Positions 10,240 to 47,755 of a stretch of 64,000 nt of DNA are shown here, in pieces. Positions within the stretch are counted from its first letter, which is position 1. Every line of letters starts with the position of its first letter. The position numbers and the translations under genes are program-made. The notes beneath the pieces are model-generated. The model searched no databases, was not told the DNA's origin, and saw only the letters and a list, made by a program, of their open reading frames with translations. The DNA lies in the NCBI GenBank assembly GCA_015058295.1, contig SVCP01000004.1, positions 4,040 through 68,039 of the forward strand, read 5' to 3'. Source of the DNA: Anaerofustis stercorihominis. GTDB taxonomy: Bacteria; Bacillota; Clostridia; Eubacteriales; Anaerofustaceae.

Positions 10240-10252
10240 TAATTGAATTTAT

Positions 10253-27711: not shown

Positions 27712-27998
27712 AGGTCTTCTCCTTTCGCATATTTCAACTGTACAGTCTACTATATTATATATAATTTGAGGATTCAATTCAACAAGAAATATAAAATTTG
27801 CCTGCTTTATTTCTGAAATTTATATATGCGCCCATTATATATACGATCGTATGAAAAAAATGGCGAAAAAACACCTCGATGGATAATTCGGGAATAAAAA
27901 TATCACGAAATTAATATAAACTCTCTCGTTTTGTTGCTAATGGAGAAAAAAAAGTATATAATGAGGAAGCTTATGAAAAAGTGCAAAGGAGGTCTGTT

Positions 27999-30836: not shown

Positions 30837-30870
30837 AACACCACAGACTGATCTGTCTGTGGTGTTTTTA
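30837..30870 (+). terminator. rho-independent terminator after the PBP gene (left boundary of the island)
   Basis: AACACCACAGAC / GTCTGTGGTGTT stem followed by TTTA. Confidence 0.8.
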
Positions 30871-30994
30871 TGTGATTGATTATATGTGGATGGAATATTA
30901 TTGACACCCTGAGGTATAAAATATGCCTGTTTATATAATTATTTTCCGAAATATCATGCAGATTCCGTTATACATATCATACAGGAGGTCAGAT

Positions 30995-31693
30995 ATGTAT
31001 AACAGTATTTATAATTTACCGTCATTTTTTTACAGCGCTGCAACCGGTATCGGCAATATATCCGAAAGGATCTGTAACAGCATATACTACAGCCTTAATA
31101 ATATCTCCCGCAGAGTTTCACGAAGCAGAAGAAATTCTTACGGAGGCAGAAGAAATTCCGATACACATATATTCCGCGGACTTGTTACTTCATTAAATCC
31201 TGTGGGAAGATACAGGACTACGCTTCAGAAAATATCAGATGCGTTGTTCCTGGGTATTCCGTATACGATTGGATTCAGTGCATACAGTCTGCGATTCAGA
31301 GTCGAAAAGATCGATGATTACGGCAGGTATACAGATGATATAAGGGATTTTGTGTTTTTCGGTGATCTGGAAGGCGTCATTCAGCTCGGGAGCGAAGTTT
31401 CCGTCAGAAGTGACTCTTCCGGCAGAGTGAAAAGTGTACTTGTTCACGATACAGGAAGGGAATACCGACCTGCATCTGCATTGTCGGTAGTTCTTATCAG
31501 GGTTGCTGCCATATTGGCAGTCGCATTGTTCATAATGTTTATAGTGTCTGTTGTCAACGGGACGCTATTTGCTTTTCTCGGTGCATTTTTCGGTGGGATT
31601 TTTTCTGCGTTCGGTATGATGCTCATGTACCTTATGCCGTATGCGGTGTGTTTTATGATTGTTTATTATATTTTCAGGGGGATATTCAGCTGA
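30995..31693 (+). CDS. hypothetical membrane protein (soluble N-terminal domain plus 2-3 C-terminal TM helices)
   Basis: ATG at 30995 after AGGAGG; an alternative start at 30923 follows GAGGT. Hydrophobic C-terminal third. Confidence 0.55.
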   Translation: MYNSIYNLPSFFYSAATGIGNISERICNSIYYSLNNISRRVSRSRRNSYGGRRNSDTHIFRGLVTSLNPVGRYRTTLQKISDALFLGIPYTIGFSAYSLRFRVEKIDDYGRYTDDIRDFVFFGDLEGVIQLGSEVSVRSDSSGRVKSVLVHDTGREYRPASALSVVLIRVAAILAVALFIMFIVSVVNGTLFAFLGAFFGGIFSAFGMMLMYLMPYAVCFMIVYYIFRGIFS

Positions 31694-31695
31694 GT

Positions 31696-34185: not shown

Positions 34186-34187
34186 AT

Positions 34188-35045
34188 ATGCTTGATTTTT
34201 ACGATTATGATGATATTTACGAAACCCCGGTGTATAAAGATATACTGTCTGCAATTACAGATACGCCCACGGAATACGAAGAACTTTCTGATAATACACA
34301 AAAAAGCATTGTCGAAATGCTTGACACAGGAGAATATATCCATACATCATTCCGAATCAATGATATTTCTGATATAACAATGCAGGACTATGAACTTGCT
34401 CTGAAAACAAAGTCTCTGGCATACGAAATGCTGCAGAAGAGTGAACACGGAGCGGAAGGTCTCGGAAAGTATTCAGAATATATTTCCGATGTGGCGAATT
34501 ACAGAAGAGACTCGGGAGAAAACTTTCAGGGAGATCTTTTCCACGAGATCATCGCGGCAAAAGACGGGTTCAACGGTATTCCCCATGTTCTCGATGAAGA
34601 TGAATTTGAAGAAGCTTCCCGGGGAAAGACCCTCTTGTACAGAGGGCTTTCCGCTTCTCCTGACGGAAAGAGCGCATTTGAGATAAGCGAGGATTTCAAG
34701 TATTCGGACAGGTTCTATCATGGTCTCGGGCTTTACGGAAACGGAATATATATGAGTCCGAGAGAAGATATAGCTAGATGCTATTCTGACGGAAGCTATG
34801 GCAGCGGAATAACTGCATTTCTCGACAGCGATGCAAGGATAATAACTTATGAAGATCTCCTTGAACGAAAAAAAAGGATTGATCTTGACGACGGAACAGA
34901 TGCGGGCAGGCTCGCAAATGAGATAATCAGCGACAACGGAAGATTTGCGGAACTTTGCGGATACGATGCCGTGAGCCTTGACGGATATGCAGGGCAGGAA
35001 CATATACTTGTGCTTAACAGAAGCAAACTGACAGTGAAGAAATAA
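34188..35045 (+). CDS. ADP-ribosyltransferase-like protein (R-S-E clade-like fold; glutamate motif atypical)
   Basis: LLYRG (Arg codon 34641-34643), GIYMS, and GYAGQEHILVLNRS (34983-35024). The last resembles the GYAGE.E.LLN segment of C2/iota/C3-type ARTs as I recall it. GGAGG RBS. Confidence 0.5.
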   Translation: MLDFYDYDDIYETPVYKDILSAITDTPTEYEELSDNTQKSIVEMLDTGEYIHTSFRINDISDITMQDYELALKTKSLAYEMLQKSEHGAEGLGKYSEYISDVANYRRDSGENFQGDLFHEIIAAKDGFNGIPHVLDEDEFEEASRGKTLLYRGLSASPDGKSAFEISEDFKYSDRFYHGLGLYGNGIYMSPREDIARCYSDGSYGSGITAFLDSDARIITYEDLLERKKRIDLDDGTDAGRLANEIISDNGRFAELCGYDAVSLDGYAGQEHILVLNRSKLTVKK

Positions 35046-35076
35046 AAAACAGGTCATCATTGACCTGTTTTTTTTT
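35044..35076. terminator. bidirectional rho-independent terminator shared by the two convergent island operons
   Basis: AACAGGTCA / TGACCTGTT stem with an A-run before it and T7 after it. It fills the whole gap between the two stop codons. Confidence 0.85.
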
Positions 35077-35077
35077 A

Positions 35078-35878
35078 TTATATGATTCCTGACAGGAATA
35101 ATGCTGCTGCGCAGGACAGAATCAGCCTGCCGCAATATCTGTAAAACAGCGGAAATGTTTCCGAGCGGTTAAGCAGAAGCGGAACGGAAATCATCGTAAT
35201 AACAATGCCTGCGGAAACCGTAATGATATTTTCTGTTGTCAGCAACAGAACCAGAAATAATGGAAGAAACCATATTGACAGGTGGGAACCATATCTTTCA
35301 GAAAAAGAATATATGATTCTGTTTACGCATACTGACAACACACACGCCCCGAAGAATCCTGCCCATCCGCTGAGTGTTGATACCGTAGACGGAAATATTA
35401 CCCCGATGATGGTGAATAACAGCTGTATTGCAAGATATATATATGACAGTGTTATTCCGTTTTGTTGCCGGCTGAGAAGTTCATCGCTTTCCCTGCGGTC
35501 TGCGGAAGGTTGTCTTCTTTGTGTGTTTCTCCGTCGTGTTGTCTGTCGTGTTGTAGTGTCTGTTGAATTTCCGGAACTCTCATTCTGTGTATTTTGCGGC
35601 CTCTGAAGATATTCACTCCGGACTCTCGGATAATACACCTGTGCCGCATATTGGTTTGCGTGAATGCTCTGTGCTGTGATTGCGGATCTTGAATTATGGA
35701 TTCTTACGGGGAAAACATATCCGCAGTTGTGACACTGATCTTCTCCGCGAAGCAGATCCTCCTTGCATACAGGGCAGTGAGACCTCTTAGAGTTTCTTGG
35801 TTTTCGTCTGAATCCGCAATGAGGACAAAGACTGCGTGTCCGTTCGAATAATGTATTGCATGCGGGACAATGTATCAT
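35078..35878 (-). CDS. double zinc-ribbon protein with a disordered basic linker and a C-terminal multi-TM domain
   Basis: N-terminus CPAC..CPHC..CPVC..CHNCGYVFPV.IH aligns with the two upstream paralogs. About four hydrophobic segments. Confidence 0.65.
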   Translation of the reverse strand: MIHCPACNTLFERTRSLCPHCGFRRKPRNSKRSHCPVCKEDLLRGEDQCHNCGYVFPVRIHNSRSAITAQSIHANQYAAQVYYPRVRSEYLQRPQNTQNESSGNSTDTTTRQTTRRRNTQRRQPSADRRESDELLSRQQNGITLSYIYLAIQLLFTIIGVIFPSTVSTLSGWAGFFGACVLSVCVNRIIYSFSERYGSHLSIWFLPLFLVLLLTTENIITVSAGIVITMISVPLLLNRSETFPLFYRYCGRLILSCAAALFLSGII

Positions 35879-35881
35879 ACT

Positions 35882-36970
35882 CTATGCTCCGAATATAGCC
35901 GCAACGGATGGCGCCTGACACAGCATAAAATATGTAAAAGTGATGCATGCAGCAGCAATGGTCGGTGTATATATAGCCAGAAAGAATCCTTCCGACCACA
36001 GATGATGATATTCACTTCGGAAAATGAACAACTCCGTAAATCCGATAATGCATGTCAGGATCAACAGCACTGCCGCTGTGATATACTGCACTCCCGGACG
36101 GAATGTCCCTGCGAGAAGCCCGAGCCATAAAATTCCGAGAATGATATTCGGAAGTACACCGTCGGCAATGTGGCTTCTGTAGCATCTTGAGATATTATGC
36201 ACAGACATAAGAAAAACCAGTACACTTATCCCTACACACATATATGCAGGCCATCTCAGTTCAGGGAATTCGATTGCCCAGGTCTGATTGACGCAAAGGA
36301 GTGAGCAGAAAACTATATTCTCCATTACGTGCGCATATCCGTCTGTAACATGAAGACGGGTTTGTGACAGGAGAGCCTTGCTTTCTGCACTCCGCGTTCT
36401 TTGCATCAGTGAGGTCATTTCATTTTGTAATGCAACAACTTCTTCAGAAGAACCGGCATCACTTCGCAGTTCGTCCAATATGGCAGACATCGAGTTGATT
36501 TCATCCATAAGCATATCTGCCGTGCGGGTTCTTTCTTCCAGCTGAGATTTTACATATTCAAGTTCCGCACTGTTTTCATTTGCTTTTGATCTGTGAATAA
36601 GAAGCTCGTAGTTCAGTTCATCTATATTTTTCTGCAGATTTTTAAGTTGCTCATCTTTAAGGTCAAGTTCTTTTTTATATTTTCCGTTGACGTTTTCAAA
36701 GTATTTTATTTTCTGTGACGGGAGGATGGTCTTTTCCGAGTACTCTTCGGCAAGTTCTCTTACGTATTGGTCTGTATATTCTGTGCTGTGGACCACCGCC
36801 GGCAGAGTAAATCCGCATTCCGGACAGCTTTCGTCTGTGTGGGAGAGCTTTTCAAAACAGGACGGACAGTATCTTCCTTTTTTGCTGTCAGGAGCGATTC
36901 GGAAAGAACATTCCGGGCATATTTTTATTCCGTCAGGTATTTCACTGCCGCATATTTTACATTTTATCAT
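35882..36970 (-). CDS. double zinc-ribbon / coiled-coil / multi-TM protein
   Basis: CKIC..CPEC..CPSC..CPECGFTLPAVVH, then a ~130-aa heptad-rich region, then ~4 TM segments. AAAGGAG RBS. Confidence 0.65.
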   Translation of the reverse strand: MIKCKICGSEIPDGIKICPECSFRIAPDSKKGRYCPSCFEKLSHTDESCPECGFTLPAVVHSTEYTDQYVRELAEEYSEKTILPSQKIKYFENVNGKYKKELDLKDEQLKNLQKNIDELNYELLIHRSKANENSAELEYVKSQLEERTRTADMLMDEINSMSAILDELRSDAGSSEEVVALQNEMTSLMQRTRSAESKALLSQTRLHVTDGYAHVMENIVFCSLLCVNQTWAIEFPELRWPAYMCVGISVLVFLMSVHNISRCYRSHIADGVLPNIILGILWLGLLAGTFRPGVQYITAAVLLILTCIIGFTELFIFRSEYHHLWSEGFFLAIYTPTIAAACITFTYFMLCQAPSVAAIFGA

Positions 36971-36994
36971 GCAGAAAACTCCTTTCAGGGTAAA

Positions 36995-37495
36995 TTAAAG
37001 TTCAATACCCGAGTTGTAAAGTCTGTCTTTGAGTACATCCAGCTCCTGCTGTACTTCCCTGAGTTTTTCTCTGGTCAGTTCATATCTTTGTTTGTAGTAT
37101 TTTTCTGTATCGGACAGTTTTATACTCTCTGCATTTGCGGGAAGCTCCCCGTATTTTTCCTTGTGGTTTATGTTTGCGATGTCTTTTTCAGCGAGCATCT
37201 TTTCATATTGAGCTATCTTTTCTTTAAGATACTTTTCCTTTTTGCGGGGAATATAGTATGTGCCTGCATATGTTACGGCCTCCGTTGTCACACGGGCGAG
37301 AACTTCGGGTGTGGGATGAATAATTACCGGGAAAGTATATCCGCATTCATCGCAGATCTCCTCACCTTTTTTTACGTTGTGATTGCAGGAGGGGCAGTAT
37401 GGTTTATTTTTATCTTCCGGTAAAAATCGGAATGAGCAAGAACATACCTCTGTTTTTACAGGAACTTCTTTTTCGCAGACAGGGCATTTTTTCAT
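36995..37495 (-). CDS. double zinc-ribbon / coiled-coil protein (soluble)
   Basis: CPVC..CSC..CPSC..CDECGYTFPVIIH, then a K/E-rich helical region. 4-nt overlap with the upstream radical SAM gene. Confidence 0.6.
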   Translation of the reverse strand: MKKCPVCEKEVPVKTEVCSCSFRFLPEDKNKPYCPSCNHNVKKGEEICDECGYTFPVIIHPTPEVLARVTTEAVTYAGTYYIPRKKEKYLKEKIAQYEKMLAEKDIANINHKEKYGELPANAESIKLSDTEKYYKQRYELTREKLREVQQELDVLKDRLYNSGIEL

Positions 37496-38115
37496 TTTAT
37501 TTCACCTTCGCTTTGTCTTATATAGCTGTTTATATATTCTCTCTGTGCTCTTGTGGGGACTCCCGTTATGGAGACTTTATCAAGGTTTACGTCCGCTTCT
37601 ATGATCCTGCCTTCGGCATTGTAAGTTTCATCGTATTTATCCTTATAACGGTCTGTAAGGAGTATTACTCTCTGATTTGAGGATCCTACGTATCTTCTCC
37701 TGTCGTCATTAAGTTCATCGACATATTCGCCATCAATAAGGATATCAATTACATCAAGGGCTCTGAGTGTGTATTCACTGCCGCAGTCACGTAGCTGTTC
37801 GATGGTGTTGCCTGTGTATACGGTGACTCCGAGATCAAGTTCATGTGCAGCAGAAGCTATGACAAACAAAGCTTCGTCCTGTAAAAACGGTTCACCGCCA
37901 CTAATGACGATTCCCTCGATTCCGAGAGACAAATTTGCGGAGATCATTTTTATTATCTCATCCGTATCAGTAATATACCCTCCGTCAAGGCTTCTTGAAT
38001 CAACGCTCATGCAGTTCGGGCAACGTCTTTTACAGCCCTGAAACCATATGGCCGTCTTTTTGCCCATACCGAACGCTTCGGTTACGGGTTTGTATGCATA
38101 TAATCGTACATTCAT
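37492..38115 (-). CDS. radical SAM activase, NrdG-like (anaerobic RNR / glycyl-radical-enzyme activating family)
   Basis: CxxxCxxC cluster GCKRRCPNC (nt ~38007-38035), SGGEP, and a DGEY...VGSSNQR segment typical of NrdG as I recall it. Confidence 0.7.
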   Translation of the reverse strand: MNVRLYAYKPVTEAFGMGKKTAIWFQGCKRRCPNCMSVDSRSLDGGYITDTDEIIKMISANLSLGIEGIVISGGEPFLQDEALFVIASAAHELDLGVTVYTGNTIEQLRDCGSEYTLRALDVIDILIDGEYVDELNDDRRRYVGSSNQRVILLTDRYKDKYDETYNAEGRIIEADVNLDKVSITGVPTRAQREYINSYIRQSEGEIK

Positions 38116-38125
38116 ATTTTTTACC

Positions 38126-39037
38126 TTATTGTTCTTCGTCGTCCTTACAAAGCAGAATATCCCTGAACTTTAACTTTATGCTGTCCAGAAGTTCTTCTGC
38201 CTGAAGAATTTCTCCATTTAAGAGATTGTTTACTTTTATGAGCTTTCCGGAGAAATTATCTGACGACGGTTTCATGTCTTCCTCGGCATCTCTGATATTG
38301 CTTAGCTTGTCGAGCCACTGAGTATACGTATTTCTCATTCTTTTTAGCTCATTGTCAAGTTCAAGACTTTTCTGCTTCAGTTCATTCAGAGCTTCTCTGT
38401 CAGAAGAAAGATCAGTTGAAATAATACTTTCATAGTGAGCTTTTTCCTTCAAAAGACGTTCGTATTCGCTGAGGTGCTCCGCATTATCAGATTGCAGTTT
38501 CTTTATAAGAGCATCAAGCTTTTCATTATCTGATATGATTTTAATTTTTTCTTTCTGCAGCTTATCGCGTTGTGCTTTTTTTACCTGCAGGATATCCGGA
38601 GAATATGAACTCAGTTCATCCGTGAGAGAATTTATCTCTTCATCAAGCTTTTTCACAACACTCATCTGTTGTTCGTGTTCCTGCTGTTTTTCTGTGAGCT
38701 TATCTTTTTCGGCACGGAGTTTTGTGCTCTTCTCTTTCAGTTCATCAATGGCAGAACGGACAGCATTATATTCTTCTTTTGTTTTTTCTATTTCGTCGGC
38801 AGACTCCTGTTTAAGAAGCTCTATCTGTTCTCCCGATGCTTTCGGATACGAAAGAAGAAGGTCTGAAAACAGTCCCGAAACTTCCATGAGCTGAGTGTAA
38901 AAAAGCTCAACATCATCAAGATTGTTTCCATTGATGTTTTCTTCATTTGCGTCATAAAAGCTCAGTACGGCGCTGAGAAAATCAACGGGAGATATTTTTT
39001 CTTTTGAAGCGAATTTATTAAAGCAGCTTAAATCCAT
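38126..39037 (-). CDS. coiled-coil protein (303 aa)
   Basis: Almost entirely E/K/L/Q-rich heptad-like sequence. AGAGG RBS. Confidence 0.55.
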   Translation of the reverse strand: MDLSCFNKFASKEKISPVDFLSAVLSFYDANEENINGNNLDDVELFYTQLMEVSGLFSDLLLSYPKASGEQIELLKQESADEIEKTKEEYNAVRSAIDELKEKSTKLRAEKDKLTEKQQEHEQQMSVVKKLDEEINSLTDELSSYSPDILQVKKAQRDKLQKEKIKIISDNEKLDALIKKLQSDNAEHLSEYERLLKEKAHYESIISTDLSSDREALNELKQKSLELDNELKRMRNTYTQWLDKLSNIRDAEEDMKPSSDNFSGKLIKVNNLLNGEILQAEELLDSIKLKFRDILLCKDDEEQ

Positions 39038-39049
39038 AACAGACCTCTT

Positions 39050-40870
39050 TTATTTTTTCGTATTCTGCTCAAGTGCAAGGGGGGAGCCGTCAACAGCAAA
39101 TATCTCTCTTCCGCTGCGGAAGGTATTTGTTTTTTCGGTTCCGCTCATATCCTTGAGGTAAAGTGTGAGAGCATTATCTTTTCCTATTGAAGCTCCGAAA
39201 TAGTATGTCACACTGCTTTTGCCGGGCGTGAGGAAGAAACTGCGGTATGATGGGTGAGGATATGCGCAATACGGAGTTATTCCTTCGCCGTAATCGAGGA
39301 CTATCCTGTAATCCGCATTGCCGTCAAAGATAAACGGGATCTCGTTTCCGCCGGAATTCTTTATATAATACGGAATGTCCTTTTGTATTACCTGACGGTT
39401 GGTAAAGCAGTAAAAATATTTCGTCTCTCCGTTGAGGATAGCTTCAAGTCCTACACCGAAAGGTGCAAAATCACGGTATGTTATGTATCCGTTGCCGACA
39501 AGGGCTGCTCCCAGACTTACGGCGTGAGATCTCCAGTTTGCGGAAACTTCGCTGTATTCACCTGCATAAACATGAGATATATTGTTTATGAGGGTGTTGT
39601 CGTTTGCGGTGCGGTGATAGTTATATTCAAGGCGTGAGTTTTCCGAATCAGCCACATCAAGACCGAAGATTTTCAGGATATACCACCTTGTGAGATAGAA
39701 GTTTCCGAAACCTCCGATAACTGCTATCATCGGTTCAATTCCGCTTTGTTCAATAAATGATTTCGCCTCGTTAAGATATTTTTCGTAGCCGGGTTTAATG
39801 ACTTCTCCGAAGCTGCTAAAGAGCTGGGAAACGGTGATCTTTACTTTTCTGCCATCGTAATATATGAAGTTGTCATTTTTGCTGTTAAAGCAGAAATTTT
39901 CTTCTTCTTTCGCAAGGTCAGTGGTTTTTCTGAACTTCCAGCTTTTGTGATTAAACTTTACGCAAAGCTTTGAGAGCTTGTCGCTGATGGATTTTGCATT
40001 TGTTGTAAGCTTTGACTCGAGAGAGTTGAACGCCTCCCAGTAATCCCTGTTTTTCGGAATCTCCGAAATACCAAGCTGTGATGAGATACTCTTCGTCAGA
40101 ACATCATTTATGTATGCAAATCCCGCCTGTCCGAGTTTGTCTTCGGAATGAAGTCCGAGTCCCCATTTTTTTATGGGCTCAAACATACTTATGCCGTCAT
40201 TTGAATACACGTTTGCCAGAAGCACATCAAATGTTCCACCTCCTATATCTGCAAGAAGAATGGCTCCTTCGTAATTTCTGCCTTCGTTCGCTTTGTAGTT
40301 GTCAATGAGCATAGCCATTGCCGCCGCAGGCTCGTTGATTATGGATACATCGGTGTGCTGATCAAATACTTTGCTGTATTCTCCGTCAAGTTCGGTTATG
40401 GCGTTTTTCAGAACGGAAGTCATGATATCTGTAAGGACGACATCTTCCGGACGTGTATTGTTGTTCTGTCCCCAGATGAGAGGCATGCATATCTTTACGG
40501 AATCAACGTGGAGCCCTTCTGTGTTGCAACTGTCAGTAAACAGCTTCATAACATATTTTAAGAATTCTTTTGTAATGTATTTCGGAGTAAACTTGTCGGT
40601 ATAGCTGTTTCTTTCGAGGACGGAAGCATCTGTTTCGTTGATAAGCAGCTTGAAGCCTCTGTATACCACAACATTTCCTCCTCCGTTAAGTGCATCAAAA
40701 CCGAACTGCAGGTCATCATCTATTCTGCTTACTACAGAAGGTATCGCATAAGATGCACCGTTGAATGCAGCTCTGCGGACTATGTTATTGGAATCAATGC
40801 CAATAACGGAAGAGTTGTAGCTGATTTTCGTGTATGTCGTTCCGTTGTCAATTGAAATGTTGAGTCCCAT
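39050..40870 (-). CDS. divergent Hsp70/DnaK-family ATPase with a non-canonical C-terminal domain
   Basis: IDNGTTYT (phosphate 1), IINEPAAA and DIGGGTFDV (nt ~40225-40255). The C-terminal ~180 aa do not look like the DnaK substrate-binding domain. Confidence 0.75.
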   Translation of the reverse strand: MGLNISIDNGTTYTKISYNSSVIGIDSNNIVRRAAFNGASYAIPSVVSRIDDDLQFGFDALNGGGNVVVYRGFKLLINETDASVLERNSYTDKFTPKYITKEFLKYVMKLFTDSCNTEGLHVDSVKICMPLIWGQNNNTRPEDVVLTDIMTSVLKNAITELDGEYSKVFDQHTDVSIINEPAAAMAMLIDNYKANEGRNYEGAILLADIGGGTFDVLLANVYSNDGISMFEPIKKWGLGLHSEDKLGQAGFAYINDVLTKSISSQLGISEIPKNRDYWEAFNSLESKLTTNAKSISDKLSKLCVKFNHKSWKFRKTTDLAKEEENFCFNSKNDNFIYYDGRKVKITVSQLFSSFGEVIKPGYEKYLNEAKSFIEQSGIEPMIAVIGGFGNFYLTRWYILKIFGLDVADSENSRLEYNYHRTANDNTLINNISHVYAGEYSEVSANWRSHAVSLGAALVGNGYITYRDFAPFGVGLEAILNGETKYFYCFTNRQVIQKDIPYYIKNSGGNEIPFIFDGNADYRIVLDYGEGITPYCAYPHPSYRSFFLTPGKSSVTYYFGASIGKDNALTLYLKDMSGTEKTNTFRSGREIFAVDGSPLALEQNTKK

Positions 40871-40894
40871 GTTATTCTCCGAATATTTCTTTGA

Positions 40895-42268
40895 TTAATT
40901 TTTCTGAGAAGCAAGTCTTCTCATAGATTCACCGGCAGATGCGGAACACTGTGAAAGTCCGCCCTGCGCCGCTGAAACCAGGATATCATCCTCGGATTCT
41001 GCAATCCCGGAGGCTGACAATATGTTTGTTATGTCTCCTTCAACGGAGGCTCTTTCTTCCGGCTGTGAAAAGATCTCTCTGTACACAGTAAGTTCATCTC
41101 CCGGATTTACGGAAAGGATGACACTGTCTCCGAAATCATTTGAAATTCTCATTGTGACAGGGCCTACTGCATTGCTGTCAAGTCTCTCATCAATGGTCCA
41201 GCCACGGCTTTCCGACTGAGAGATGAGGTTGTCTGCGGCGCTGTGTGCGGCGATCTGTCTTAATCTGTTTTCGTTTGCTATTGATACAAGAGAGCTTTCA
41301 TCATCCGAGAGTACTTCGTCAAGGTCGTATTCCATTGTGTTTATCATCTGCTCAAGTGCGCGGTTGCCGAGAGATTCAGGTGTTTTTATGCGGTTTCTGA
41401 TGGCAATATAGTTCTCTCTTACCATCTCATAAAAGTTTTCTCCGTCATCCGTGAAAGCGTCGCACCACTCACCTACAGGGCAGGGGTATTTCGTGATGTT
41501 GTTATCTTCATCGGCAAGCAGAACTTCGTTTTCGTCACATTCTGCGAGCCTTCCATCCATTCTTACGGAAAGCTCATTTGCTCTTGCAATGAGAGACGGA
41601 CGTTTTTCGAAGTTTTCTGAGAGAATGTGATAGTGAATGAGCATATCCCTGTTGAACTGAGCATCTAAAATTGCTGTTACACTCTGAGTGTTGTCTCTCT
41701 GAAGTTCTGCACGGGCGCTTTCGATGACAAATGCAAATCTGTCGAGTTCTTCCTTGTCTTCTCCTCCGAAGTCAAGCTCTCTCATCTGCGAAAGAAGATT
41801 CTCTGCGTTGGAAAGAAGACTTGTTGCCGTTTCTTTTCTTCTGTTTTCAAGATCAAATATAGCATCGACTCTTTCGTTGGTTAAAGTTACCTGTCCGTAA
41901 AGGTCATCAATTCTGAAATTTACCTGATCGAGCTGACGGTTGATCATATCCACCCTGTGTCCGAGATCGTTTATTCTGTCTGTGTTTGCGTTGTTGAGCG
42001 CATCCTGCTGAGAGATCACATCTCTCAGTCTGTCGAGTTCTCTTTGTGTTGAACGGCTCAGTTCGTCATATCTTCTCTGGGCTTCAGCTCTTGCCTGCTC
42101 CGACTGAGCTCTTTCTTCTCTGATAATGCGCTCGACAGCTTCGTTAACCTGTGCATTGCCGTTTCTTACGGATGCAAGCTCTCTTTCGAGGTTTGCTGCT
42201 CTGTTGTAACCTGCAAGAAGACGGTTATATTCACTGTTTGATAATACTCGTGTTCGTTCGATACTCAT
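40895..42268 (-). CDS. coiled-coil protein with a globular C-terminal half (457 aa)
   Basis: The N-terminal ~200 aa are R/E/Q/L-rich heptads. Start chosen at ATG 42268, 8 nt after GGAG. Confidence 0.55.
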   Translation of the reverse strand: MSIERTRVLSNSEYNRLLAGYNRAANLERELASVRNGNAQVNEAVERIIREERAQSEQARAEAQRRYDELSRSTQRELDRLRDVISQQDALNNANTDRINDLGHRVDMINRQLDQVNFRIDDLYGQVTLTNERVDAIFDLENRRKETATSLLSNAENLLSQMRELDFGGEDKEELDRFAFVIESARAELQRDNTQSVTAILDAQFNRDMLIHYHILSENFEKRPSLIARANELSVRMDGRLAECDENEVLLADEDNNITKYPCPVGEWCDAFTDDGENFYEMVRENYIAIRNRIKTPESLGNRALEQMINTMEYDLDEVLSDDESSLVSIANENRLRQIAAHSAADNLISQSESRGWTIDERLDSNAVGPVTMRISNDFGDSVILSVNPGDELTVYREIFSQPEERASVEGDITNILSASGIAESEDDILVSAAQGGLSQCSASAGESMRRLASQKN

Positions 42269-42334
42269 AATAAGCACTCCTTTTATGTTTATTCGGTTAA
42301 TATAACCGGGCTTATTTTTATATATCGGAAAACA

Positions 42335-45300
42335 TCAGATATTTTCTTTGTTTTTGATATTTTTCATCAGTCTGTAAAGATTATCTATGTGTGCAAAACG
42401 ATTTGTTTCGCTGGGAGCATGTACTCCCGAGCTGGAATGGTTTATAGATCCGCACAGATATCCGATTACAAGGCCGTCTGTATTTATTATAGGTGCACCG
42501 GAATCTCCCTGATGAATCGCCTGTCCTTCAAAAAGGATATAACCGCTGTTGGTTCCCACTACTTTCGAAGGTGTATGCAGCTGCAGCTCTCTTATTCCGA
42601 GAGGATATCCTGCGGAGAATACCTTATCCTGAAGAGAGCACAGCTCCCCTTCAGGTGCAAGATTCAGTGAAGGATACACAGACCCGTTTTCAAAGCTGTC
42701 CTTTATGGCGAGGATCGCACAGTCGCCGTCTTCGGATGATGCGATTACGGAAAGGTGGATATTTTTCTCGAAGTTCATGGCGCCCTGTTTTATTTTCACT
42801 GTTGCGGTAAACGAATCCGCACCGTTTACGCAGTGGTGACATGTGGCAACATATTTTCCTCCGATAATGTATCCTGTGGAATGTGAATGTACCGAACCGC
42901 CTTTTTTTGCTTCGATCCTTACGATGGCATTTTCCATCTTTGTCAGGAAGCCTTCAGAAATATTATCGTTTTCGTCAAGTACATTTTCTTCGCCTGACGA
43001 GAGCGATTCAATAAATCCGTCCTCAGCAAATTCACGGGAATATATTTCCTTTTCATCCACTGCGGAACCTTCCTTTATGAATTTATAATCCTCAAGTTCT
43101 TTTATTGCATCAACGGAAAGAGTGTTGTCTTCCACAAACGGCCACAGGTCTTCTGCCAGTGCGCAAGCATACCTTGCGTTACCGAAGGCCGCACCTGTAT
43201 TTTGTTTGTATGTGATAATGCGCATAAGTGCATCTCTTGCTTCGTCGGTAACGATAACTTCCTGTGAGATAAGCTCACTCAGTTTGTGAGCGAATATTGC
43301 ATACAAAGCATCAACATCGTAATCCCCGATGCGTATCTCCGTAAAGCGGCTTTCAAGACCTTCCTGAGCAGATTTTACAGCCGCCCAGTCCTTTTCGTAT
43401 CCTGTGAAAATAACGCATATGTTGTTTTTTTCTCCGTCGGTTATGTAGGAGCACATATTGTTCACGGCATTTCTGCAGGCGCTATCAGAACGGACCTGCA
43501 GATCAAGTCCCGCTGTTTCATCAATAAGAAGTACAGACCCGTTTGCTTCCGAAAATGCTTCTTCCATTTTTTCGGGGGTGTTGATATCTGAAAATCTCTT
43601 CTGAATGAATGCTCCCGTTGAGAGTATACGGAATTCCCTGAACACGCGCCCCATAAGTCTTGCGAACTCTGTCTTTCCCGTTCCCGGATTGCCGAGAAGG
43701 GAATAATTTTTTACTTTAACTTTGCGCCTTATCTCGAGAATGCCTTTCTGCGTAAGTCTGCCGTTTTTTGTATTTCCGGGAAGAGATGCCACTTTTGTGA
43801 TGCGTCTGTGCATATTTCGGATTACATTTTTCACATCTTCCATACCCACAAATTCACTCATGATTTCCTCAAGTTCATTTTCGGTTATAAGGTGATACTC
43901 TTTATCGTATTTTTCAAGAGGAGTGCCTTTTGATGAAAAAGTATTCGCTCTGGTACAGGGAACAAGAAATTCTTCTTCAAGTGTGCGGACATTTGCCCAC
44001 TTCCGTTTTGTGTCTCCCAGGCGGTCAATGTACCAGTTTGTTAGAAAATCCCTCAGATCGTCATCGGCATAGCCTTCTTTGTATCGGATATTGTTGTTTT
44101 TGAGATATGATCTTGCGATCTCGAAAAGCTCGAGCTCCGAATATGTATCAAGCCTGATGAAATTCTGACGGAAACGGGAAGAAAGACCTTCATCGTTTTC
44201 CCAGATTTTTTCCATCCTGTCTTCATATCCCGCGAGTACAACAGCCATTCTGCCTTTGTAATTCGTGAGTGCCGGAATGAGTACTTCCATTATCTCCTGT
44301 TTGAAATGTTCTTCGTTGCCGTTGTTGTCGTGAACGCGGAGGTTGTGAGCTTCATCAATGAACAATACTCCCCCGACAGCATCTTTGATTCTGTTTTTCA
44401 TTTCAACGGCAGTCTGTCCCACAAATCCCTGCTTCAGCTGCCCTACGGAAGTTTCCACAAGATGGCCGCTGGGCAGGATTCCGAGATTTCGGAGTGCTTC
44501 CCCGAGAAGTCTTGCAACTGTGGTCTTTCCGCTTCCCGGAGGCCCCACGAGGACGAAGTTCAGGAATGCAGGTGCGTTTTTACTGTCTGCAGGAAAGAGC
44601 CTCTGCACAGCAAGATAATCAGGACAGATATGAGAAGTTACCTTTGATGGCTTTGTGCCACCATAAGCGGTTTTTATATCATTCAGCTCTCTTAGCAGCG
44701 TTTTGAATCCGTTTCCCTGCATATTTCTTATCTTTTCCAGCGGGTCTTCAGCGATATTCCTTACGCAGTTTTGCAGTTCGTCAAAATAAGATACTTTTTT
44801 GTTTTTGTAGCATACGGAGTTTTTCAGACCGCTGAGTGTTGCTGTTTTGTCAAAATTAATGCCTGATTTTTCCAGTGAAGAAACTATCTGGGGTTTTTGT
44901 GATTTTGTATCATCGGACTGGGAAGGGGTATATCTGTTTATCGCTACAAGCTGTGAGGATATATCCTCCAGAAGATTATAGTCAAGGGATATTTCCCCTT
45001 CGATGTCGGATTTGATGAGCATATTTTTTGCTTCATCAGTGCTGAATTTTTCAACTTCGATGAATCTTCCGTTGATGCTCTCAATATGTGCTTTGTTGTC
45101 ATAATTTTTCTTGAAGTCGCCTTCAGCGCAGGCTTCCCAGAATGACAGTTCTTTGAAAAGCTCATGAACAGCTTTCCATTCTTCCCGGATCTGCCCGTTT
45201 ACGGTTGTCATATTGTCCACATAGTCAATATCCGGGAATATAAATATAATATTTTTCCTTATTCTGTTGTTTGCCCTGAACTTCGAGAGAGTTGTGCAGA

Positions 45301-45757
45301 GCTTTATTATCTCTTCAGTCTTGTCAAGACTGTTTTTTATTATGTCAAAAAGATCTTCTCCGCTTAAGATGACTGCGGTGGAAAAATCTCTCTGTTCTTC
45401 TCCGAACATAAATCTGTCGATATATCTGAGCATCTTGATATACGAAGACAACTTATCCTTGTCCGTGAGAATTATCTTCGCACCGTTTACGGGAATGAAG
45501 CCTCTTTTCTGTGTTCCTTCGAGCTTGAACAGGTTCCCGAAATTCGTTGCGGAAATCTCATCGGACGCAAACGGACCGATGAAAGAGTCGTCTTTTTTGA
45601 AAGAGATTATGTAGTCATATCCCGCATATTTAAGATAGTTGTGAAGATACCCGAATATATCCACTTCCTCAAGGGAGTTCAGATAAAAGCGTTCGTTATA
45701 GATTTCTTTTGAAATAACGTATCCGAAGATCTCGTTTATTCCTTCAAAATATGCCAT
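42335..45757 (-). CDS. 1140-aa fusion: unassigned N-domain + two CbbX/SpoVK-type AAA+ modules + C-terminal trypsin-like serine protease
   Basis: Walker A GPPGSGKTT with Walker B VLFIDEAH (nt ~44521-44550). Second Walker A GNPGTGKTE with LLIDE (nt ~43670-43700). Protease His (TCHHC), Asp (DCAIL) and Ser (GDSGAPI, nt ~42494-42515). AAGGAG RBS. Confidence 0.75.
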   Translation of the reverse strand: MAYFEGINEIFGYVISKEIYNERFYLNSLEEVDIFGYLHNYLKYAGYDYIISFKKDDSFIGPFASDEISATNFGNLFKLEGTQKRGFIPVNGAKIILTDKDKLSSYIKMLRYIDRFMFGEEQRDFSTAVILSGEDLFDIIKNSLDKTEEIIKLCTTLSKFRANNRIRKNIIFIFPDIDYVDNMTTVNGQIREEWKAVHELFKELSFWEACAEGDFKKNYDNKAHIESINGRFIEVEKFSTDEAKNMLIKSDIEGEISLDYNLLEDISSQLVAINRYTPSQSDDTKSQKPQIVSSLEKSGINFDKTATLSGLKNSVCYKNKKVSYFDELQNCVRNIAEDPLEKIRNMQGNGFKTLLRELNDIKTAYGGTKPSKVTSHICPDYLAVQRLFPADSKNAPAFLNFVLVGPPGSGKTTVARLLGEALRNLGILPSGHLVETSVGQLKQGFVGQTAVEMKNRIKDAVGGVLFIDEAHNLRVHDNNGNEEHFKQEIMEVLIPALTNYKGRMAVVLAGYEDRMEKIWENDEGLSSRFRQNFIRLDTYSELELFEIARSYLKNNNIRYKEGYADDDLRDFLTNWYIDRLGDTKRKWANVRTLEEEFLVPCTRANTFSSKGTPLEKYDKEYHLITENELEEIMSEFVGMEDVKNVIRNMHRRITKVASLPGNTKNGRLTQKGILEIRRKVKVKNYSLLGNPGTGKTEFARLMGRVFREFRILSTGAFIQKRFSDINTPEKMEEAFSEANGSVLLIDETAGLDLQVRSDSACRNAVNNMCSYITDGEKNNICVIFTGYEKDWAAVKSAQEGLESRFTEIRIGDYDVDALYAIFAHKLSELISQEVIVTDEARDALMRIITYKQNTGAAFGNARYACALAEDLWPFVEDNTLSVDAIKELEDYKFIKEGSAVDEKEIYSREFAEDGFIESLSSGEENVLDENDNISEGFLTKMENAIVRIEAKKGGSVHSHSTGYIIGGKYVATCHHCVNGADSFTATVKIKQGAMNFEKNIHLSVIASSEDGDCAILAIKDSFENGSVYPSLNLAPEGELCSLQDKVFSAGYPLGIRELQLHTPSKVVGTNSGYILFEGQAIHQGDSGAPIINTDGLVIGYLCGSINHSSSGVHAPSETNRFAHIDNLYRLMKNIKNKENI

Positions 45758-45781
45758 TTTTAGCTCCTTATGCCGAATAAT

Positions 45782-46054
45782 TTAACGATCGAGTATTTCG
45801 ATGATATTGAGATATGCGTTATATTTTTTGCTGCAGTAACTGCAGTTTTTCATATGTCTGTTAAATTCCGTAAGCCTTTTCATATTATCTTCGTCTAGAC
45901 TTTTCATCATAATTATTTCCGCAAAGTCCGAAGGAGAGATATGTTTTACCGTATCATCGAACATTTCCCCGTTATCACGGGGAGGCTGTTCTTTTCCGGC
46001 AGAACGGATATTAATATTGAATCTGTCATTATCTTTTGAACGGTATTTGTCCAT
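45782..46054 (-). CDS. 90-aa protein with a zinc-binding anti-sigma-type HxxxCxxC motif
   Basis: RHMKNCSYC (nt ~45832-45857). No TM segment. Lies directly downstream of the sigma-like gene. Confidence 0.4.
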   Translation of the reverse strand: MDKYRSKDNDRFNINIRSAGKEQPPRDNGEMFDDTVKHISPSDFAEIIMMKSLDEDNMKRLTEFNRHMKNCSYCSKKYNAYLNIIEILDR

Positions 46055-46069
46055 TTTGTCTTTTCACCT

Positions 46070-47104
46070 TTACAGATAATCCTTCACCTCTGCGTAAAGA
46101 GCTTTATGAACCTTCTTCATAGAGCTTTTCGCCCAGTCGTACATATCTTTTTCCTTTCCGAAGACTTTAAAAAATGTGTCCTTGTACTTTTGTCCGTCCG
46201 GAATATTCCCTGCTGAACGGAATTTTGCTGGAACTTCTATTTCGAGTCTGTCGTCAAGACACGCAAATGAAATCTCTTCATCCATATTTACATCATATCC
46301 CATATATCTTACGAACAGACAGCGTATGTCGCTGTTTGCGTCGTTTCTCATCCTGTATAACCGGCTGTCGGCATATTTTCGGAAAACCGGCGTGTAATTT
46401 CCAAGGGATGATGTACTTTTTTTCATGAACGGGAATATTATCACACTGAACAGCGTTGAGAGTGTTTTGTAAGGAGCTTCCTTTTCAAACCCGAGCAGCG
46501 TATTGAAGCTTCTCATAAGTATTTTTATTTTTTCTGTTCTCATGAGAGAAGTATCCGCGTTATCTTCTGCCGAATATTCCCTGTGTGAGAGGATTCCTTC
46601 ATTATCAGAATCATCATCTGTTGTCTCGGGATATACAGATACGGTATGTATGTATTTCGGTGTGTTCTCAGGGTTCTTTTTATACTCCGGGTTGAGCACG
46701 ATGCCATACTGCTTCAGCGTATCGCTTATGGCACTGTTTGCACACATGCCAAGATAGCTGATGAAATTTCCTGTGTTTTTCATAAACAGGTTATCCCTGT
46801 CCGTAAACTTGGGCGGAATATTCTTCAGGGATTTGAGGGCAACTTCACTGAGGGCATCTTCGATAAATCTGTCTTTATCGAAATTTGCGGAATTTGAGTT
46901 AGCAGTTTTCAGTACAGCTGACAATGCCACATTCTTCGCCGCCGCAGAAATATATCTGCACGCTTCGGAAAAATTTTCCCGGAAAGCGCTGTCATCACTG
47001 TTGATCAGCTCTGAAATGTGATGTATGTCACCAAGTGTAATGTCTTCAAGAAATTCGTGTAAAGAACCGTCCGGTATTATCCTTTTTTCTGTAAATCTGC
47101 CCAT
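46070..47104 (-). CDS. hypothetical protein with a sigma-70 region-2-like segment (possible atypical sigma factor)
   Basis: FIEDALSEVALKSLKNI ... FISYLGMCANSAISDTLKQ resembles the ECF region 2 pattern (..QE.FLK.w.. / F..WL..IA.N...D..R). Start chosen at MGRFTEK after GAGGTG. The assignment is weak. Confidence 0.3.
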   Translation of the reverse strand: MGRFTEKRIIPDGSLHEFLEDITLGDIHHISELINSDDSAFRENFSEACRYISAAAKNVALSAVLKTANSNSANFDKDRFIEDALSEVALKSLKNIPPKFTDRDNLFMKNTGNFISYLGMCANSAISDTLKQYGIVLNPEYKKNPENTPKYIHTVSVYPETTDDDSDNEGILSHREYSAEDNADTSLMRTEKIKILMRSFNTLLGFEKEAPYKTLSTLFSVIIFPFMKKSTSSLGNYTPVFRKYADSRLYRMRNDANSDIRCLFVRYMGYDVNMDEEISFACLDDRLEIEVPAKFRSAGNIPDGQKYKDTFFKVFGKEKDMYDWAKSSMKKVHKALYAEVKDYL

Positions 47105-47202
47105 AAAACACCTCAGTAATACTTTAAAATAAGTATATATCATATTCAAAACAAAGTCCATATGAAGAGAACTTTTTTGGTACACATGATTGTTTGTCTG
47201 AA

Positions 47203-47228
47203 TTAAAAAACTGCCCGTGCGGGCAGTT
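47203..47228 (-). terminator. rho-independent terminator after the nitroreductase gene (right boundary of the island)
   Basis: AACTGCCCG / CGGGCAGTT stem followed on the minus strand by TTTTTTAATT. Confidence 0.8.
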
Positions 47229-47233: not shown

Positions 47234-47755
47234 TTACCATCTTTCGAAGTGGACTCTGTCTTCTTCGTAAATGAGTTTCTGTTTTGTGGATTCGGCTTTT
47301 GGGTATCCGAAAGCGATAATGGAATGAGGAACTATACTTTCAGGCAGACCGAAAAGTTCTGCCTGAGCCTGCATCTTTTCTTCCTGCGGCCATGTGCCCA
47401 GCCAGCAACTTCCTATTCCCATAGCATTTGCCGCGAGGATCATGTTCTGCGCAGCGATGGAGCCGTCTATAACCCAATAATCCGGAGCTGCTCGGAATGC
47501 TCTGTCAAGGTCTCCGCATACAAGGATTCCGAGAGGAGCTCTTTTAAGAAGCTGTGCGGCTTTTCCGTTTGCATCAGCCATTTTTGCAAGAGTGTCTTTA
47601 TCTTTCACGACGATAAATGACCACGGTCTTGCGTTTACGGCAGTAGGTCCGCTCATCGCCGCATCAAGGATAGCCCTGATCTCATCATCGGAAATTTCCT
47701 TGTCGGAATAATCCCTGACACTTACTCTCGCCAATATGTTTTTCAATGTGTCCAT
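47234..47755 (-). CDS. nitroreductase-family protein
   Basis: 173 aa with an R.SVR.Y N-terminus and the P.A.N.QPW pattern. Confidence 0.8.
   Translation of the reverse strand: MDTLKNILARVSVRDYSDKEISDDEIRAILDAAMSGPTAVNARPWSFIVVKDKDTLAKMADANGKAAQLLKRAPLGILVCGDLDRAFRAAPDYWVIDGSIAAQNMILAANAMGIGSCWLGTWPQEEKMQAQAELFGLPESIVPHSIIAFGYPKAESTKQKLIYEEDRVHFERW

Follow-up and report, generated by a model that had tools for sequence, protein, structure and literature searches.

A preliminary description of DNA from a gut metagenome-assembled genome (MAG) of Anaerofustis stercorihominis had placed ten consecutive open reading frames (ORFs) on the minus strand at positions 35078-47104 of a 64,000-nt window, by which we mean the whole stretch analysed. 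All ten are present at these coordinates and are called here g1 to g10 in the direction of reading. They form one compact predicted operon, an accessory-rich member of a multi-gene system that is conserved and horizontally scattered and has no name so far. Three proteins make up its invariant core: a radical S-adenosylmethionine (SAM) protein, here g7, a protein of a family that we term G4, here g4, and an AAA+ protein, here g3. Among the accessories, Hsp70s, proteases and proteins with zinc ribbons are common; others that recur are coiled-coil or GrpE partners of the Hsp70s, a HerA/FtsK-like ATPase accompanied by a membrane protein and a variable gene, and a candidate regulator pair (g1/g2).

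A predicted ten-gene transcription unit

The genes look like a single transcription unit. From g1 to g10 the intergenic gaps are 15, 24, 66, 24, 12, 10, -4 (the g7/g8 overlap), 24 and 3 nt, the g3/g4 gap being 57 nt instead of 66 if GTG 42277 is taken as the start of g4, and a purine-rich Shine-Dalgarno sequence lies 5-10 nt before each of the ten starts. The close packing that had been described (gaps of at most 66 nt, one 4-nt overlap, a Shine-Dalgarno sequence for every one of ten minus-strand ORFs) was confirmed in full from the sequence. The inferred starts give proteins identical to the NCBI deposits MBE6037925.1 to MBE6037916.1, eight of which bear the product name "hypothetical protein", one "AAA family ATPase" and one "radical SAM protein". 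Three mechanically called ORFs, 40895-42277 (g4) and, in a convergent plus-strand cassette treated below, 30923-31693 and 31648-34185, are probably too long; their likely true starts are ATG 42268, ATG 30995 and ATG 31696, and the translations from ATG 31696 and ATG 42268 equal deposited NCBI proteins.

A sigma-70-like promoter candidate before g1 (TTCATA-16 nt-TATGAT, minus strand, 47139-47166) was found by consensus scan and direct reading and is a consensus match only. The 5' border of the unit is the intrinsic terminator of the upstream nitroreductase gene (minus strand, 47209-47228; 8-bp stem with five G-C pairs, then a T-run). On the other side, 3' of g10, lies a bidirectional terminator (35044-35073; 13-bp stem, T-runs on both strands), on which the plus-strand cassette and g1-g10 converge. 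The preliminary description had seen no internal terminator, and our terminator scan agrees: between g1 and g10 it gave nothing convincing, the minus-strand terminator-like matches being three weak 5-6-bp stems in coding sequence (42833-42817, 38977-38961 and 35163-35150). Packing, promoter candidate and flanking terminators together support the single unit of ~12 kb proposed at the outset.

Sister loci and their neighbours

The radical SAM protein was used to collect loci from metagenomes, one-genome-per-species contigs, IMG/VR and plasmids, and the ORFs of 32 loci were clustered by BLAST. Four of the clustered families include window genes: the radical SAM protein (29 loci), the AAA+ protein (28), G4 (28 members in 20 loci, mostly between the other two) and Hsp70 (13 of the 32). 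The order in most loci is radical SAM, then one or two G4, then AAA+, and this ordered triad is seen in L005, L006, L013, L018-L022, L025, L029, L030, L032, L037, L052, L059 and L089. Lineages with the triad include Ruminococcus, Lachnospiraceae, Acutalibacteraceae, Clostridium, Bacteroidaceae, Muribaculaceae and the isolate Kordia aestuariivivens; its broad spread takes in Clostridia, Bacteroidota, Flavobacteriia, Campylobacterota and cyanobacteria, with variants in Sulfurovum, Desulfovibrio and Scytonema. In Calothrix sp. PCC 6303, the mobilizable plasmid pCAL6303.02 carries an Hsp70 family protein, a TPR protein, a radical SAM protein, a G4 member (1e-61) and an AAA+ protein (2e-63), all under generic PGAP names.

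Most like the window are L008 and L009, which hold AAA+, G4, Hsp70, a ~360-aa coiled-coil protein, a small zinc-ribbon protein and radical SAM, as well as a co-directional ~830-aa HerA/FtsK-like ATPase that comes after a ~240-aa protein with a zinc ribbon and transmembrane (TM) segments. When loci were approached through relatives of the Hsp70 protein g5 and homologues of the AAA+-trypsin protein, they again contained one or more Hsp70s, a Fer4_12 radical SAM protein of ~190-220 aa, proteins of ~450-550 aa and multi-AAA+ proteins. It had been suggested that co-localisation of at least four to five of the genes in distant lineages would support a functional module, and g7, g4, g3 and g5 are indeed found together in such lineages.

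The neighbours of these loci include genes of stress and defence. Three to four tandem TerD genes stand upstream of the triad, and a Ser/Thr kinase gene downstream, in L020 (~7300-9840), L022, L032 and L037 (Ruminococcaceae, Ruminococcus, Lachnospiraceae and Clostridium), arrays that by gene order link the triad to Ter-type stress/defence modules. In L011, vWA+PP2C is attached to the triad, with CRISPR cas1/cas2 on one side and an AAA_21/RloB pair on the other. With the defence models of PADLOC-DB v2.0.0 (2023), the 145 ORFs flanking triad loci gave matches to AbiLi (4e-63), AriA, Cas1, a type IIG restriction-modification enzyme, mad3/mad8 and WYL, and Pfam found three integrases among them; a TraG/VirD4-like gene lies near L006. 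On plasmid pGM01 of Geminocystis sp. NIES-3708 (L173, 1-18570) a radical SAM homologue sits amid a dense defence island with DUF1156, HNH, BrnT, an anti-phage dCTP deaminase, a dGTPase, UvrD-helicase fragments and HigB, and is followed by six hypothetical genes, one of them weakly G4-like (E=1.9e-7). A phage origin was rejected, the 80 best IMG/VR matches to the radical SAM protein being of NrdG length and none accompanied by G4, AAA or Hsp70.

The loci show a modularity typical of conflict systems: the protease is swapped (trypsin, Lon_C or none), the gene after HerA is variable, and zinc-ribbon tags sit on varied modules. Active-site motifs are intact in the radical SAM protein, both AAA+ modules, the protease and Hsp70. 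Genomic context favours a conflict or defence role, and we put the probability that this is a conflict system, directed against phages or mobile elements and possibly abortive, at roughly 55%.

The radical SAM protein

The best-conserved gene of the system is that of the radical SAM protein, with 37-50% identity to >200 proteins. Its window member g7 (207 aa, 37492-38115) is glycyl-radical-activase-like, matches Fer4_12 at 2e-25 and had been described as NrdG-like; NrdG is indeed its best sequence model. C28-x3-C32-x2-C35 and G73-G74-E75-P76 are invariant across 40 homologues, and g7, with four cysteines in total, is a minimal activase-type protein. Its AlphaFold2 (AF2) model has a pLDDT of 93, and the nearest PDB structures are the pyruvate formate-lyase activating enzyme (PFL-AE; E=1e-8), then QueE, then viperins.

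NrdG itself was nevertheless rejected as an identification of g7, which scores 86.7 bits against the 126.1-bit cut-off of the NrdG model TIGR02491 (the radical SAM proteins of sister loci likewise fall below it), has no NrdD and belongs to a separate clade. Among the best 80 genome loci, 15 have a radical SAM protein of 162-197 aa next to a large ORF whose C-terminus bears a glycyl-radical motif; judged by length and partner these are true NrdG/NrdD pairs, and none of the 15 has G4, AAA+, Hsp70 or HerA. At least one of those four partners is present in 27 of the 80, none of them with NrdD. A neighbour-joining tree places the partner-linked proteins, g7 included, in one block of 29 and the NrdD-linked proteins in another. 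Other branches of the radical SAM family adjoin Ser/Thr kinases, FHA, PP2C and Cdc48/ClpB-type AAA+ proteins; as read from gene neighbourhoods, the general rule is a radical SAM protein beside a ring-shaped NTPase.

We also note two peculiar arrangements of radical SAM homologues. A second operon type encodes an AAA-domain protein (~1285 aa), a PIN-domain protein (~820 aa), a hypothetical protein (~367 aa), an AAA ATPase (~622 aa) and a radical SAM protein; it occurs on plasmids of Moellerella wisconsensis (L174, 1-9549; typed conjugative) and Polaromonas naphthalenivorans CJ2 (L175, 1-9594; typed non-mobilizable), where it adjoins ArdA, integrase and transposase genes. In a Thermoanaerobaculia MAG (L063), Actinomadura meyerae (L066) and Spirillospora sp. 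(L076), radical SAM homology lies inside ORFs of 784-946 aa, which suggests fusion of an activase-like domain to other domains.

The G4 and AAA+ partners

The core partner of the radical SAM and AAA+ proteins, g4 (457 aa, 40895-42268, start ATG 42268), had been described as a coiled-coil protein. This holds for its N-terminal part and falls short of the whole, since g4 is a member of a conserved family whose proteins, of ~450-550 aa, start with a coiled coil, continue through a helical middle and end in an alpha/beta part. Scored with a hidden Markov model (HMM) of the G4 family, g4 reaches 2e-72 and WP_015173947, from the Calothrix plasmid, 1e-61. Pfam, NCBIfam and PDB have no corresponding family, a PDB profile search giving apolipoprotein-like coiled-coil noise only. 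An exhaustive phmmer search with the C-terminal 311 aa of g4 against 1.84 billion representatives returned one spurious repetitive match only, so the window protein is too divergent for single-sequence search. G4 has the appearance of a scaffold or adaptor rather than of an enzyme.

The third core protein, g3 (1140 aa, 42335-45757), has an N-domain of ~380 aa, two AAA+ modules of the SpoVK/CbbX/EccA clade and a C-terminal trypsin-like serine protease (Pfam AAA 1e-24, Trypsin_2 5e-12). The AAA+/AAA+/trypsin fusion first described stands, with both Walker pairs and the protease triad intact: Walker A is GPPGSGKT at 405 and GNPGTGKT at 689, Walker B lies at 464 and 742, and the triad is formed by His (in ATCHHC), Asp1012 and Ser1086. 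The D1 module carries an FVG445 pore loop. Against curated equivalog models g3 matches at 1e-60 to 1e-49, with 204.7 bits for SpoVK (cut-off 422.95), 177.9 for EccA (466.65) and 166.6 for CbbX (459.25). Sporulation SpoVK, EccA of the type VII secretion system (T7SS) and CbbX were therefore all rejected, each score being less than half of its cut-off; by these scores g3 belongs to the clade yet equals none of its named proteins.

The N-terminal region of ~380 aa has no family match, and an HMM of 21 sister AAA N-domains aligns to it colinearly but weakly (10.5 bits). In sister AAA+ proteins the number of modules ranges from two to four or more, and each of these proteins has a region of 330-460 aa before the first Walker A. 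At the C-terminus, trypsin is found in the window, L005, L006, L008 and L021 and Lon_C in L009; elsewhere there is no protease, and most triad loci are without one. In the AAA+ proteins of L032 (12447-16067) and L037 (13192-14385) a GDSG motif occurs near residue 271-275, and the protease domain of this lineage may be N-terminal instead of C-terminal.

Hsp70 and the coiled-coil protein

The description of g5 (606 aa, 39050-40870) as Hsp70 proved correct, for a divergent form with a nucleotide-binding domain (NBD) and a beta substrate-binding domain (SBD-beta) and without the helical lid. Alone, g5 matches Pfam HSP70 at E=0.007, below the gathering threshold; a profile of g5 and 17 relatives matches DnaK at E=1e-85 over residues 1-~500 (NBD and SBD-beta), the similarity ending at SBD-beta. 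The catalytic residues are kept: D8, K74, E180, D208, G210, G212 and T213 (D208-x-G-G-G-T) are invariant in the alignment that includes g5. A k-mer-indexed search with g5 returned four relatives only, and orthologues with 26-28% identity lie in L001, L008 and L009. A GrpE domain was found in one sister locus only, L006.

After Hsp70 comes g6 (303 aa, 38126-39037), whose matches are to SMC/Rad50/JetC-type coiled coils only and whose likeness to the G4 HMM is at the coiled-coil level. L008 and L009 have coiled-coil proteins of 356-360 aa at the same position, to which g6 shows no significant sequence similarity.

Zinc-ribbon proteins

The last three genes of the operon are paralogues that have an N-terminal double zinc ribbon in common and differ downstream of it. 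They had been described as three double-zinc-ribbon membrane proteins; the ribbons are there in all three, and only g9 and g10 are membrane proteins. The soluble g8 (166 aa, 36995-37495; UPF0547/DZR matches) has no TM segment and combines the ribbons with a coiled coil; its CxxC motifs are at 4, 34 and 48, and a looser C18-x-C20 pair completes the first ribbon. In g9 (362 aa, 35882-36970; DZR 7e-6), a coiled coil and C-terminal TM helices follow, with hydrophobic segments from ~240, and in g10 (266 aa, 35078-35878; DZR match) a low-complexity linker and four TM helices (~141, 196, 216 and 248). CxxC is found at 4, 18, 35 and 49 in both. L008 and L009 are rich in proteins with this tag (zinc ribbon with TM, with Sel1, and with MORN and eight TM segments), and zinc ribbons joined to RCC1 or MORN occur in other lineages. 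The presence of the ribbon on such varied modules makes g8-g10 a class of interchangeable modules, and suggests that the ribbon is a common docking tag on membrane and repeat modules alike.

The closeness of a radical SAM gene to a protease and several small Cys-rich proteins also recalls the maturation of ribosomally synthesised and post-translationally modified peptides (RiPPs). The radical SAM protein would then modify a precursor, be it a small zinc-ribbon protein or another, from which the trypsin domain would cut a leader, with the ATPases in a supporting role, somewhat as Kaur et al. 2020 proposed that a radical SAM protein modifies a peptide effector in FtsH ternary systems (PMC7159879). 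We regard such a cluster as most improbable here: g7 is of the minimal 207-aa activase type, with four cysteines and no SPASM/twitch domain; neither an exporter nor a match to a RiPP recognition element was found; the protease is absent at most triad loci; and zinc-ribbon proteins of 166-362 aa with TM segments or a coiled coil are not leader-core peptides.

The convergent HerA-like cassette

On the plus strand, three genes converge on the operon. The first, p256 (232 aa from ATG 30995, 30995-31693, AGGAGG 6 nt before the ATG), encodes a membrane protein with C-terminal TM helices and shows 25-28% identity to the proteins that precede the HerA-like gene in L008 and L009; these counterparts (~240 aa) have in addition an N-terminal zinc ribbon. 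The second, p845 (829 aa from ATG 31696, 31696-34185), is an ATPase of the HerA/FtsK superfamily with an N-terminal extension of ~320 aa and a single P-loop domain (Pfam DUF87 6e-13; PADLOC HerA/mad8 models 1e-11 to 3e-15; Walker A GTTGSGKS, Walker B MIVLEE), and shares 35% identity with the ATPase inside the L009 cluster and 27% with its L008 counterpart. The third, p285 (285 aa, 34188-35045), starts 3 nt after the p845 stop and is a variable gene and candidate effector. It had no match in Pfam, PADLOC, PDB, phage or plasmid searches and no pairwise similarity to its counterpart in L009, where the position is held by an unrelated HExxH protein; its AF2 single-sequence model (pLDDT 33) is unusable. 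A hunch that p285 is an ADP-ribosyltransferase found no support in the Pfam, PDB, phage or plasmid searches.

Because L008 and L009 carry the HerA-like ATPase and its membrane partner within their clusters, the homologous plus-strand genes of the window (30995-35045) very probably belong to the system, which is then larger than first delimited. HerA-like ATPases also adjoin the radical SAM gene in L029, L034, L085 and L109. In the last of these, an IMG/VR contig classed as viral (UViG_3300045988_176120), a HerA-like ORF (1-1914; E=1.3e-69 to an HMM of p845 homologues) lies ~8 kb upstream of a full-length-type radical SAM gene (10001-10522) on the same strand, a pairing that may be a prophage-borne or misclassified copy of HerA plus radical SAM.

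The cassette bears on two further explanations. The island might be shared by two or three independent modules, namely radical SAM-G4-AAA+(-Hsp70), the zinc-ribbon membrane proteins and the HerA-like cassette. The triad does occur without Hsp70, zinc-ribbon proteins or HerA at many loci, L034 has its HerA-like ATPase beside radical SAM without AAA+, the cassette of the window is a separate convergent transcription unit, and SpoVK- and HerA-type cassettes can act as insertable add-ons in CoCoNuT loci (PMC11090510). We nevertheless find a mosaic rather improbable, since in L008 and L009 all these genes point the same way within one dense cluster, g7 and g8 overlap by 4 nt, g9 and g10 are 3 nt apart, and zinc-ribbon-tagged proteins recur within triad clusters of several lineages (clusters c6, c10 and c16).

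The other explanation is an apparatus, of a T7SS-like or conjugation-related kind, for translocating or assembling proteins. Its substrate would be exported or assembled by an EccA-like AAA+ chaperone together with an FtsK/HerA motor, the membrane partners of that motor and a protease for processing. The EccA model matches g3 at E=3e-52, p845 is an FtsK/HerA-superfamily protein paired with a membrane protein, several proteins have TM segments (g9, g10 and p256), and the TraG/VirD4-like gene near L006 would fit. Against this, the EccA match reaches 178 bits where the cut-off is 467, and SpoVK and CbbX score similarly; no EccC-type triple ATPase, EssB/EsaA or obvious WXG100-size gene is seen in the unit, although no search was aimed at WXG100-like small ORFs; secretion systems have nothing that corresponds to the core of radical SAM and G4; and most triad loci lack a membrane ATPase. 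A translocation apparatus is accordingly very unlikely.

A candidate regulator pair

The operon is headed by g1 (344 aa, 46070-47104, ATG 47104; MBE6037925.1, hypothetical protein) and g2 (90 aa, 45782-46054), which had been described as sigma-like and as an HxxxCxxC protein. The motif of g2 is there, as read from sequence (H67-x3-C71-x2-C74), and makes it a ZAS-like (zinc-binding anti-sigma) small protein and candidate anti-sigma or redox-zinc switch; its match to the RsrA anti-sigma model is weak and below cut-off (E=0.006). For g1 the label could not be verified. It is a candidate regulator with no match in Pfam, NCBIfam, PADLOC or PDB sequences, and at E<=0.1 neither Pfam nor NCBIfam gave Sigma70_r2, Sigma70_r4 or ECF (extracytoplasmic function). 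The only support for a putative sigma/anti-sigma pair comes from L009, where the positional analogue of g1, a 276-aa protein without pairwise similarity to it, has a weak Sigma70_r2 match (E=0.024) and is followed by an HxxxCxxC protein.

Flanking genes

Upstream of the unit lies the Pfam Nitroreductase ORF at 47234-47755. Upstream of the plus-strand cassette, ORF 27981-30815 has Transgly and Transpeptidase domains (penicillin-binding protein 1, PBP1), and a hairpin with a T-run 3' of this gene (plus strand, 30838-30869, read directly from sequence) is the outer border of the cassette. Further away in the window, a T-box leader (RF00230, 128.8 bits; 52037-52233, minus strand) precedes a 659-aa ORF (50024-52003) that reads as methionyl-tRNA synthetase-like and represents ordinary amino-acid-responsive regulation. 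A 352-aa Macro-domain protein (24517-25575, minus strand) and an RNase PH-Ham1 (RdgB-like) fusion (22422-23735, plus strand) appear unconnected to the system.

Searches for a known system

It had been expected that a novel system would give no match to known ones, and PADLOC indeed matched no system for the 13 window proteins (g1-g10 and the cassette). Its matches are at the domain level only: the trypsin part of an RT-protease, JetC/LmuB coiled coils, pVip (9e-6) and, for p845, HerA/mad8. A known defence system was rejected on this result. NCBIfam matches of the sister-locus components are generic (DnaK, HscA, NrdG, MreB and SMC) and yield no named system, and in full-text literature, subscription literature lying outside the search, no paper combined SpoVK with radical SAM or dealt with a system of Hsp70, radical SAM and AAA+; the only papers that came up, Kaur et al. 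2020 and the one on CoCoNuTs, describe other systems. A sporulation locus, which would have undercut novelty, is not what lies here, SpoVK being far below its cut-off; nor is this a ribonucleotide reductase locus (NrdG), and by its EccA score it does not look like a T7SS locus either. In every membership test that could be run, a defining feature was lacking, and the system is undescribed within reach of the searches used.

Two or more new protein families are hereby defined, the G4 partner and the AAA+ N-domain, together with a new radical SAM clade. The combination of core genes and the coupling of radical SAM to a ring translocase are without characterised precedent. Members occur in Clostridia and Bacteroidota of the human gut and the rumen, as well as on the plasmid of the culturable Calothrix sp. 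PCC 6303, so that the system is directly testable.

Proposed function

If the system acts in conflict, it would rest on a new principle, a minimal activase-type radical SAM protein hard-wired to AAA+/HerA motors with Hsp70 as an accessory. A bolder reading, less probable than not, is a new immune or conflict class in which an activase-like radical SAM protein is obligatorily coupled to ring translocases (SpoVK-type, Cdc48/ClpB-type AAA+ or HerA/FtsK); radical chemistry would act on a threaded protein or nucleic-acid polymer, or a component would be radical-activated on demand, and Hsp70 and zinc-ribbon modules would serve as sensors or adaptors. If true, this would for the first time, viperin-type nucleotide synthesis aside, tie the protein chemistry of radical SAM enzymes to Hsp70 chaperones and to antiviral defence.

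As a mechanism, whose details are doubtful, we envisage an ATP-gated unfolding and proteolysis machine with a radical-chemistry step. g1 and g2 would hold back expression or activity until a trigger. Hsp70, through SBD-beta, and the zinc-ribbon-tagged proteins could capture a non-self or stress-derived client, or place the complex at the membrane, and the coiled coil of g4 might bridge them to the AAA+ ring as the ClpB M-domain couples to DnaK. The ring would thread the client through its D1 pore loop into the fused protease, while the radical SAM protein would abstract hydrogen from the threaded polymer, a system component or a nucleotide and so make the response irreversible. The HerA-like translocase, its membrane partner and p285 may form a second, exchangeable effector arm.

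Several observations count against a conflict role or against this scheme. Defence is assigned by what is in effect guilt by association, and chaperone and protease content with a possible ECF/ZAS pair would be equally typical of stress regulons. The window island has no integrase, tRNA, att-like repeats or GC deviation, and mobile-element borders were rejected on the last three; it is bordered by housekeeping genes, PBP1 on one side and nitroreductase on the other, beyond which ORFs read from their translations as RluD-like, aminotransferase and MetRS follow. No J-domain HPD motif occurs in any of the 13 window proteins. The glycyl-radical motif R[VIT]xG[FYW] is absent from every conserved partner family and cluster ORF, and a glycyl-radical substrate among the partners was rejected on its absence from the conserved families. 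The G4 family has almost no invariant residues, which leaves the bridging role of g4 a pure analogy. Lastly, g1, g6, g8-g10 and p285 have no sequence-detectable orthologues elsewhere, and their membership is by position and domain class.

Some of these points would suit a specialised proteostasis or stress regulon without a conflict role. Hsp70 and the AAA+-protease would carry out quality control of membrane or oxidatively damaged proteins, switched on by g1/g2 as an ECF-like sigma factor and ZAS, with the oxygen-labile radical SAM protein serving in repair or as a sensor of redox state. Hsp70, a GrpE-domain partner and an AAA+-protease fusion are classical parts of such machinery, g2 has the ZAS motif and its weak RsrA match, the TerD genes linked at some loci are stress-associated, and the window island lies among housekeeping genes without mobility genes. 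We think it unlikely all the same. The distribution is patchy and cross-phylum and includes plasmids, accessory turnover is heavy and extends to the protease, and the neighbours elsewhere are CRISPR, AbiL, dCTP deaminase, toxin-antitoxin genes and integrases; housekeeping chaperone systems are normally less variable and less rare, and a J-protein is missing from the window. These features lead us to keep the conflict role as the preferred reading, although even as a stress system a dedicated machine of Hsp70, AAA+-protease and radical SAM would be new biology.

Comparison with known systems

The activating enzymes NrdG and PFL-AE, with QueE and viperin/pVip as structural neighbours, share with g7 the CxxxCxxC and GGEP motifs and the minimal partial-barrel fold. 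They differ from it in that g7 has a C-terminal extension of ~45 aa with a conserved G-I/V-P and stands beside ring translocases, never beside NrdD or another protein that bears a glycyl-radical motif. RiPP-type radical SAM maturases differ in domain content and fold, g7 having no SPASM/twitch domain and the fold of an activase, QueE or viperin.

Like the DnaK-ClpB pair and the AAA+ proteases Lon and FtsH, the system has an Hsp70 with intact ATPase residues, an AAA+ ring with an aromatic pore loop and coiled-coil mediators, and like the AAA+ proteases it fuses AAA+ to a protease (trypsin in the window, Lon_C in L009). Unlike DnaK-ClpB, the window has no J-protein and its Hsp70 no lid; the AAA+ protein is a tandem of the SpoVK/CbbX/EccA clade with a large novel N-domain, not Clp/Hsp100; radical SAM and G4 are obligatory; and the system is rare and patchy.

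The conflict systems of Kaur, Burroughs, Iyer & Aravind 2020, which centre on chaperones and NTPases, include MoxR-vWA ternary systems and combinations of a GTPase with Hsp70/GrpE/DnaJ or of tubulin with Hsp70 (PMC7159879). They resemble ours in being multi-gene and NTP-dependent, in their chaperone ATPases, Hsp70/GrpE, trypsin-type effectors and common small adaptors, and in their modularity (PMC7159879); in the window, however, Pfam and NCBIfam gave no MoxR, vWA, GAP1-N2/DO-GTPase or tubulin. No triad of radical SAM, G4 and a SpoVK-type protein is described there, radical SAM being mentioned once, in the FtsH context (PMC7159879).

Type III CoCoNuT systems contain CnuD Hsp70-like proteins, insertions of SpoVK or of EssC / EccE3-HerA, and TerY-P triads (PMC11090510). 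Both they and our system bring together tandem AAA+ modules of the SpoVK family, long coiled coils and an Hsp70-like NBD/SBD; both have a cassette that pairs a HerA/VirB4-like ATPase with a small protein, and both have vWA, PP2C and kinase genes as neighbours (PMC11090510). The window differs in having no McrB GTPase, McrC/DUF2357, HEPN or CARF by Pfam. CoCoNuTs in turn have no radical SAM protein, and the Walker-like motifs of CnuD are degenerate where the window Hsp70 keeps its catalytic residues (PMC11090510). With Ter clusters (TerD; TerY-P vWA/PP2C/kinase) the likeness is confined to some triad loci, which have three or four TerD genes, vWA+PP2C or a Ser/Thr kinase, genes of which none occurs in the window; the association is limited to a subset of lineages.

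Finally, Sir2-HerA and DUF4297-HerA resemble the window in pairing a HerA/FtsK ATPase with an exchangeable partner, which is p285 here and an HExxH protein in L009. Neither p256 nor p285 matches Sir2 or DUF4297, and the matches of p845 to HerA models are partial (1e-11); its ATPase, with an extension of ~320 aa and a membrane partner, is part of a larger system.

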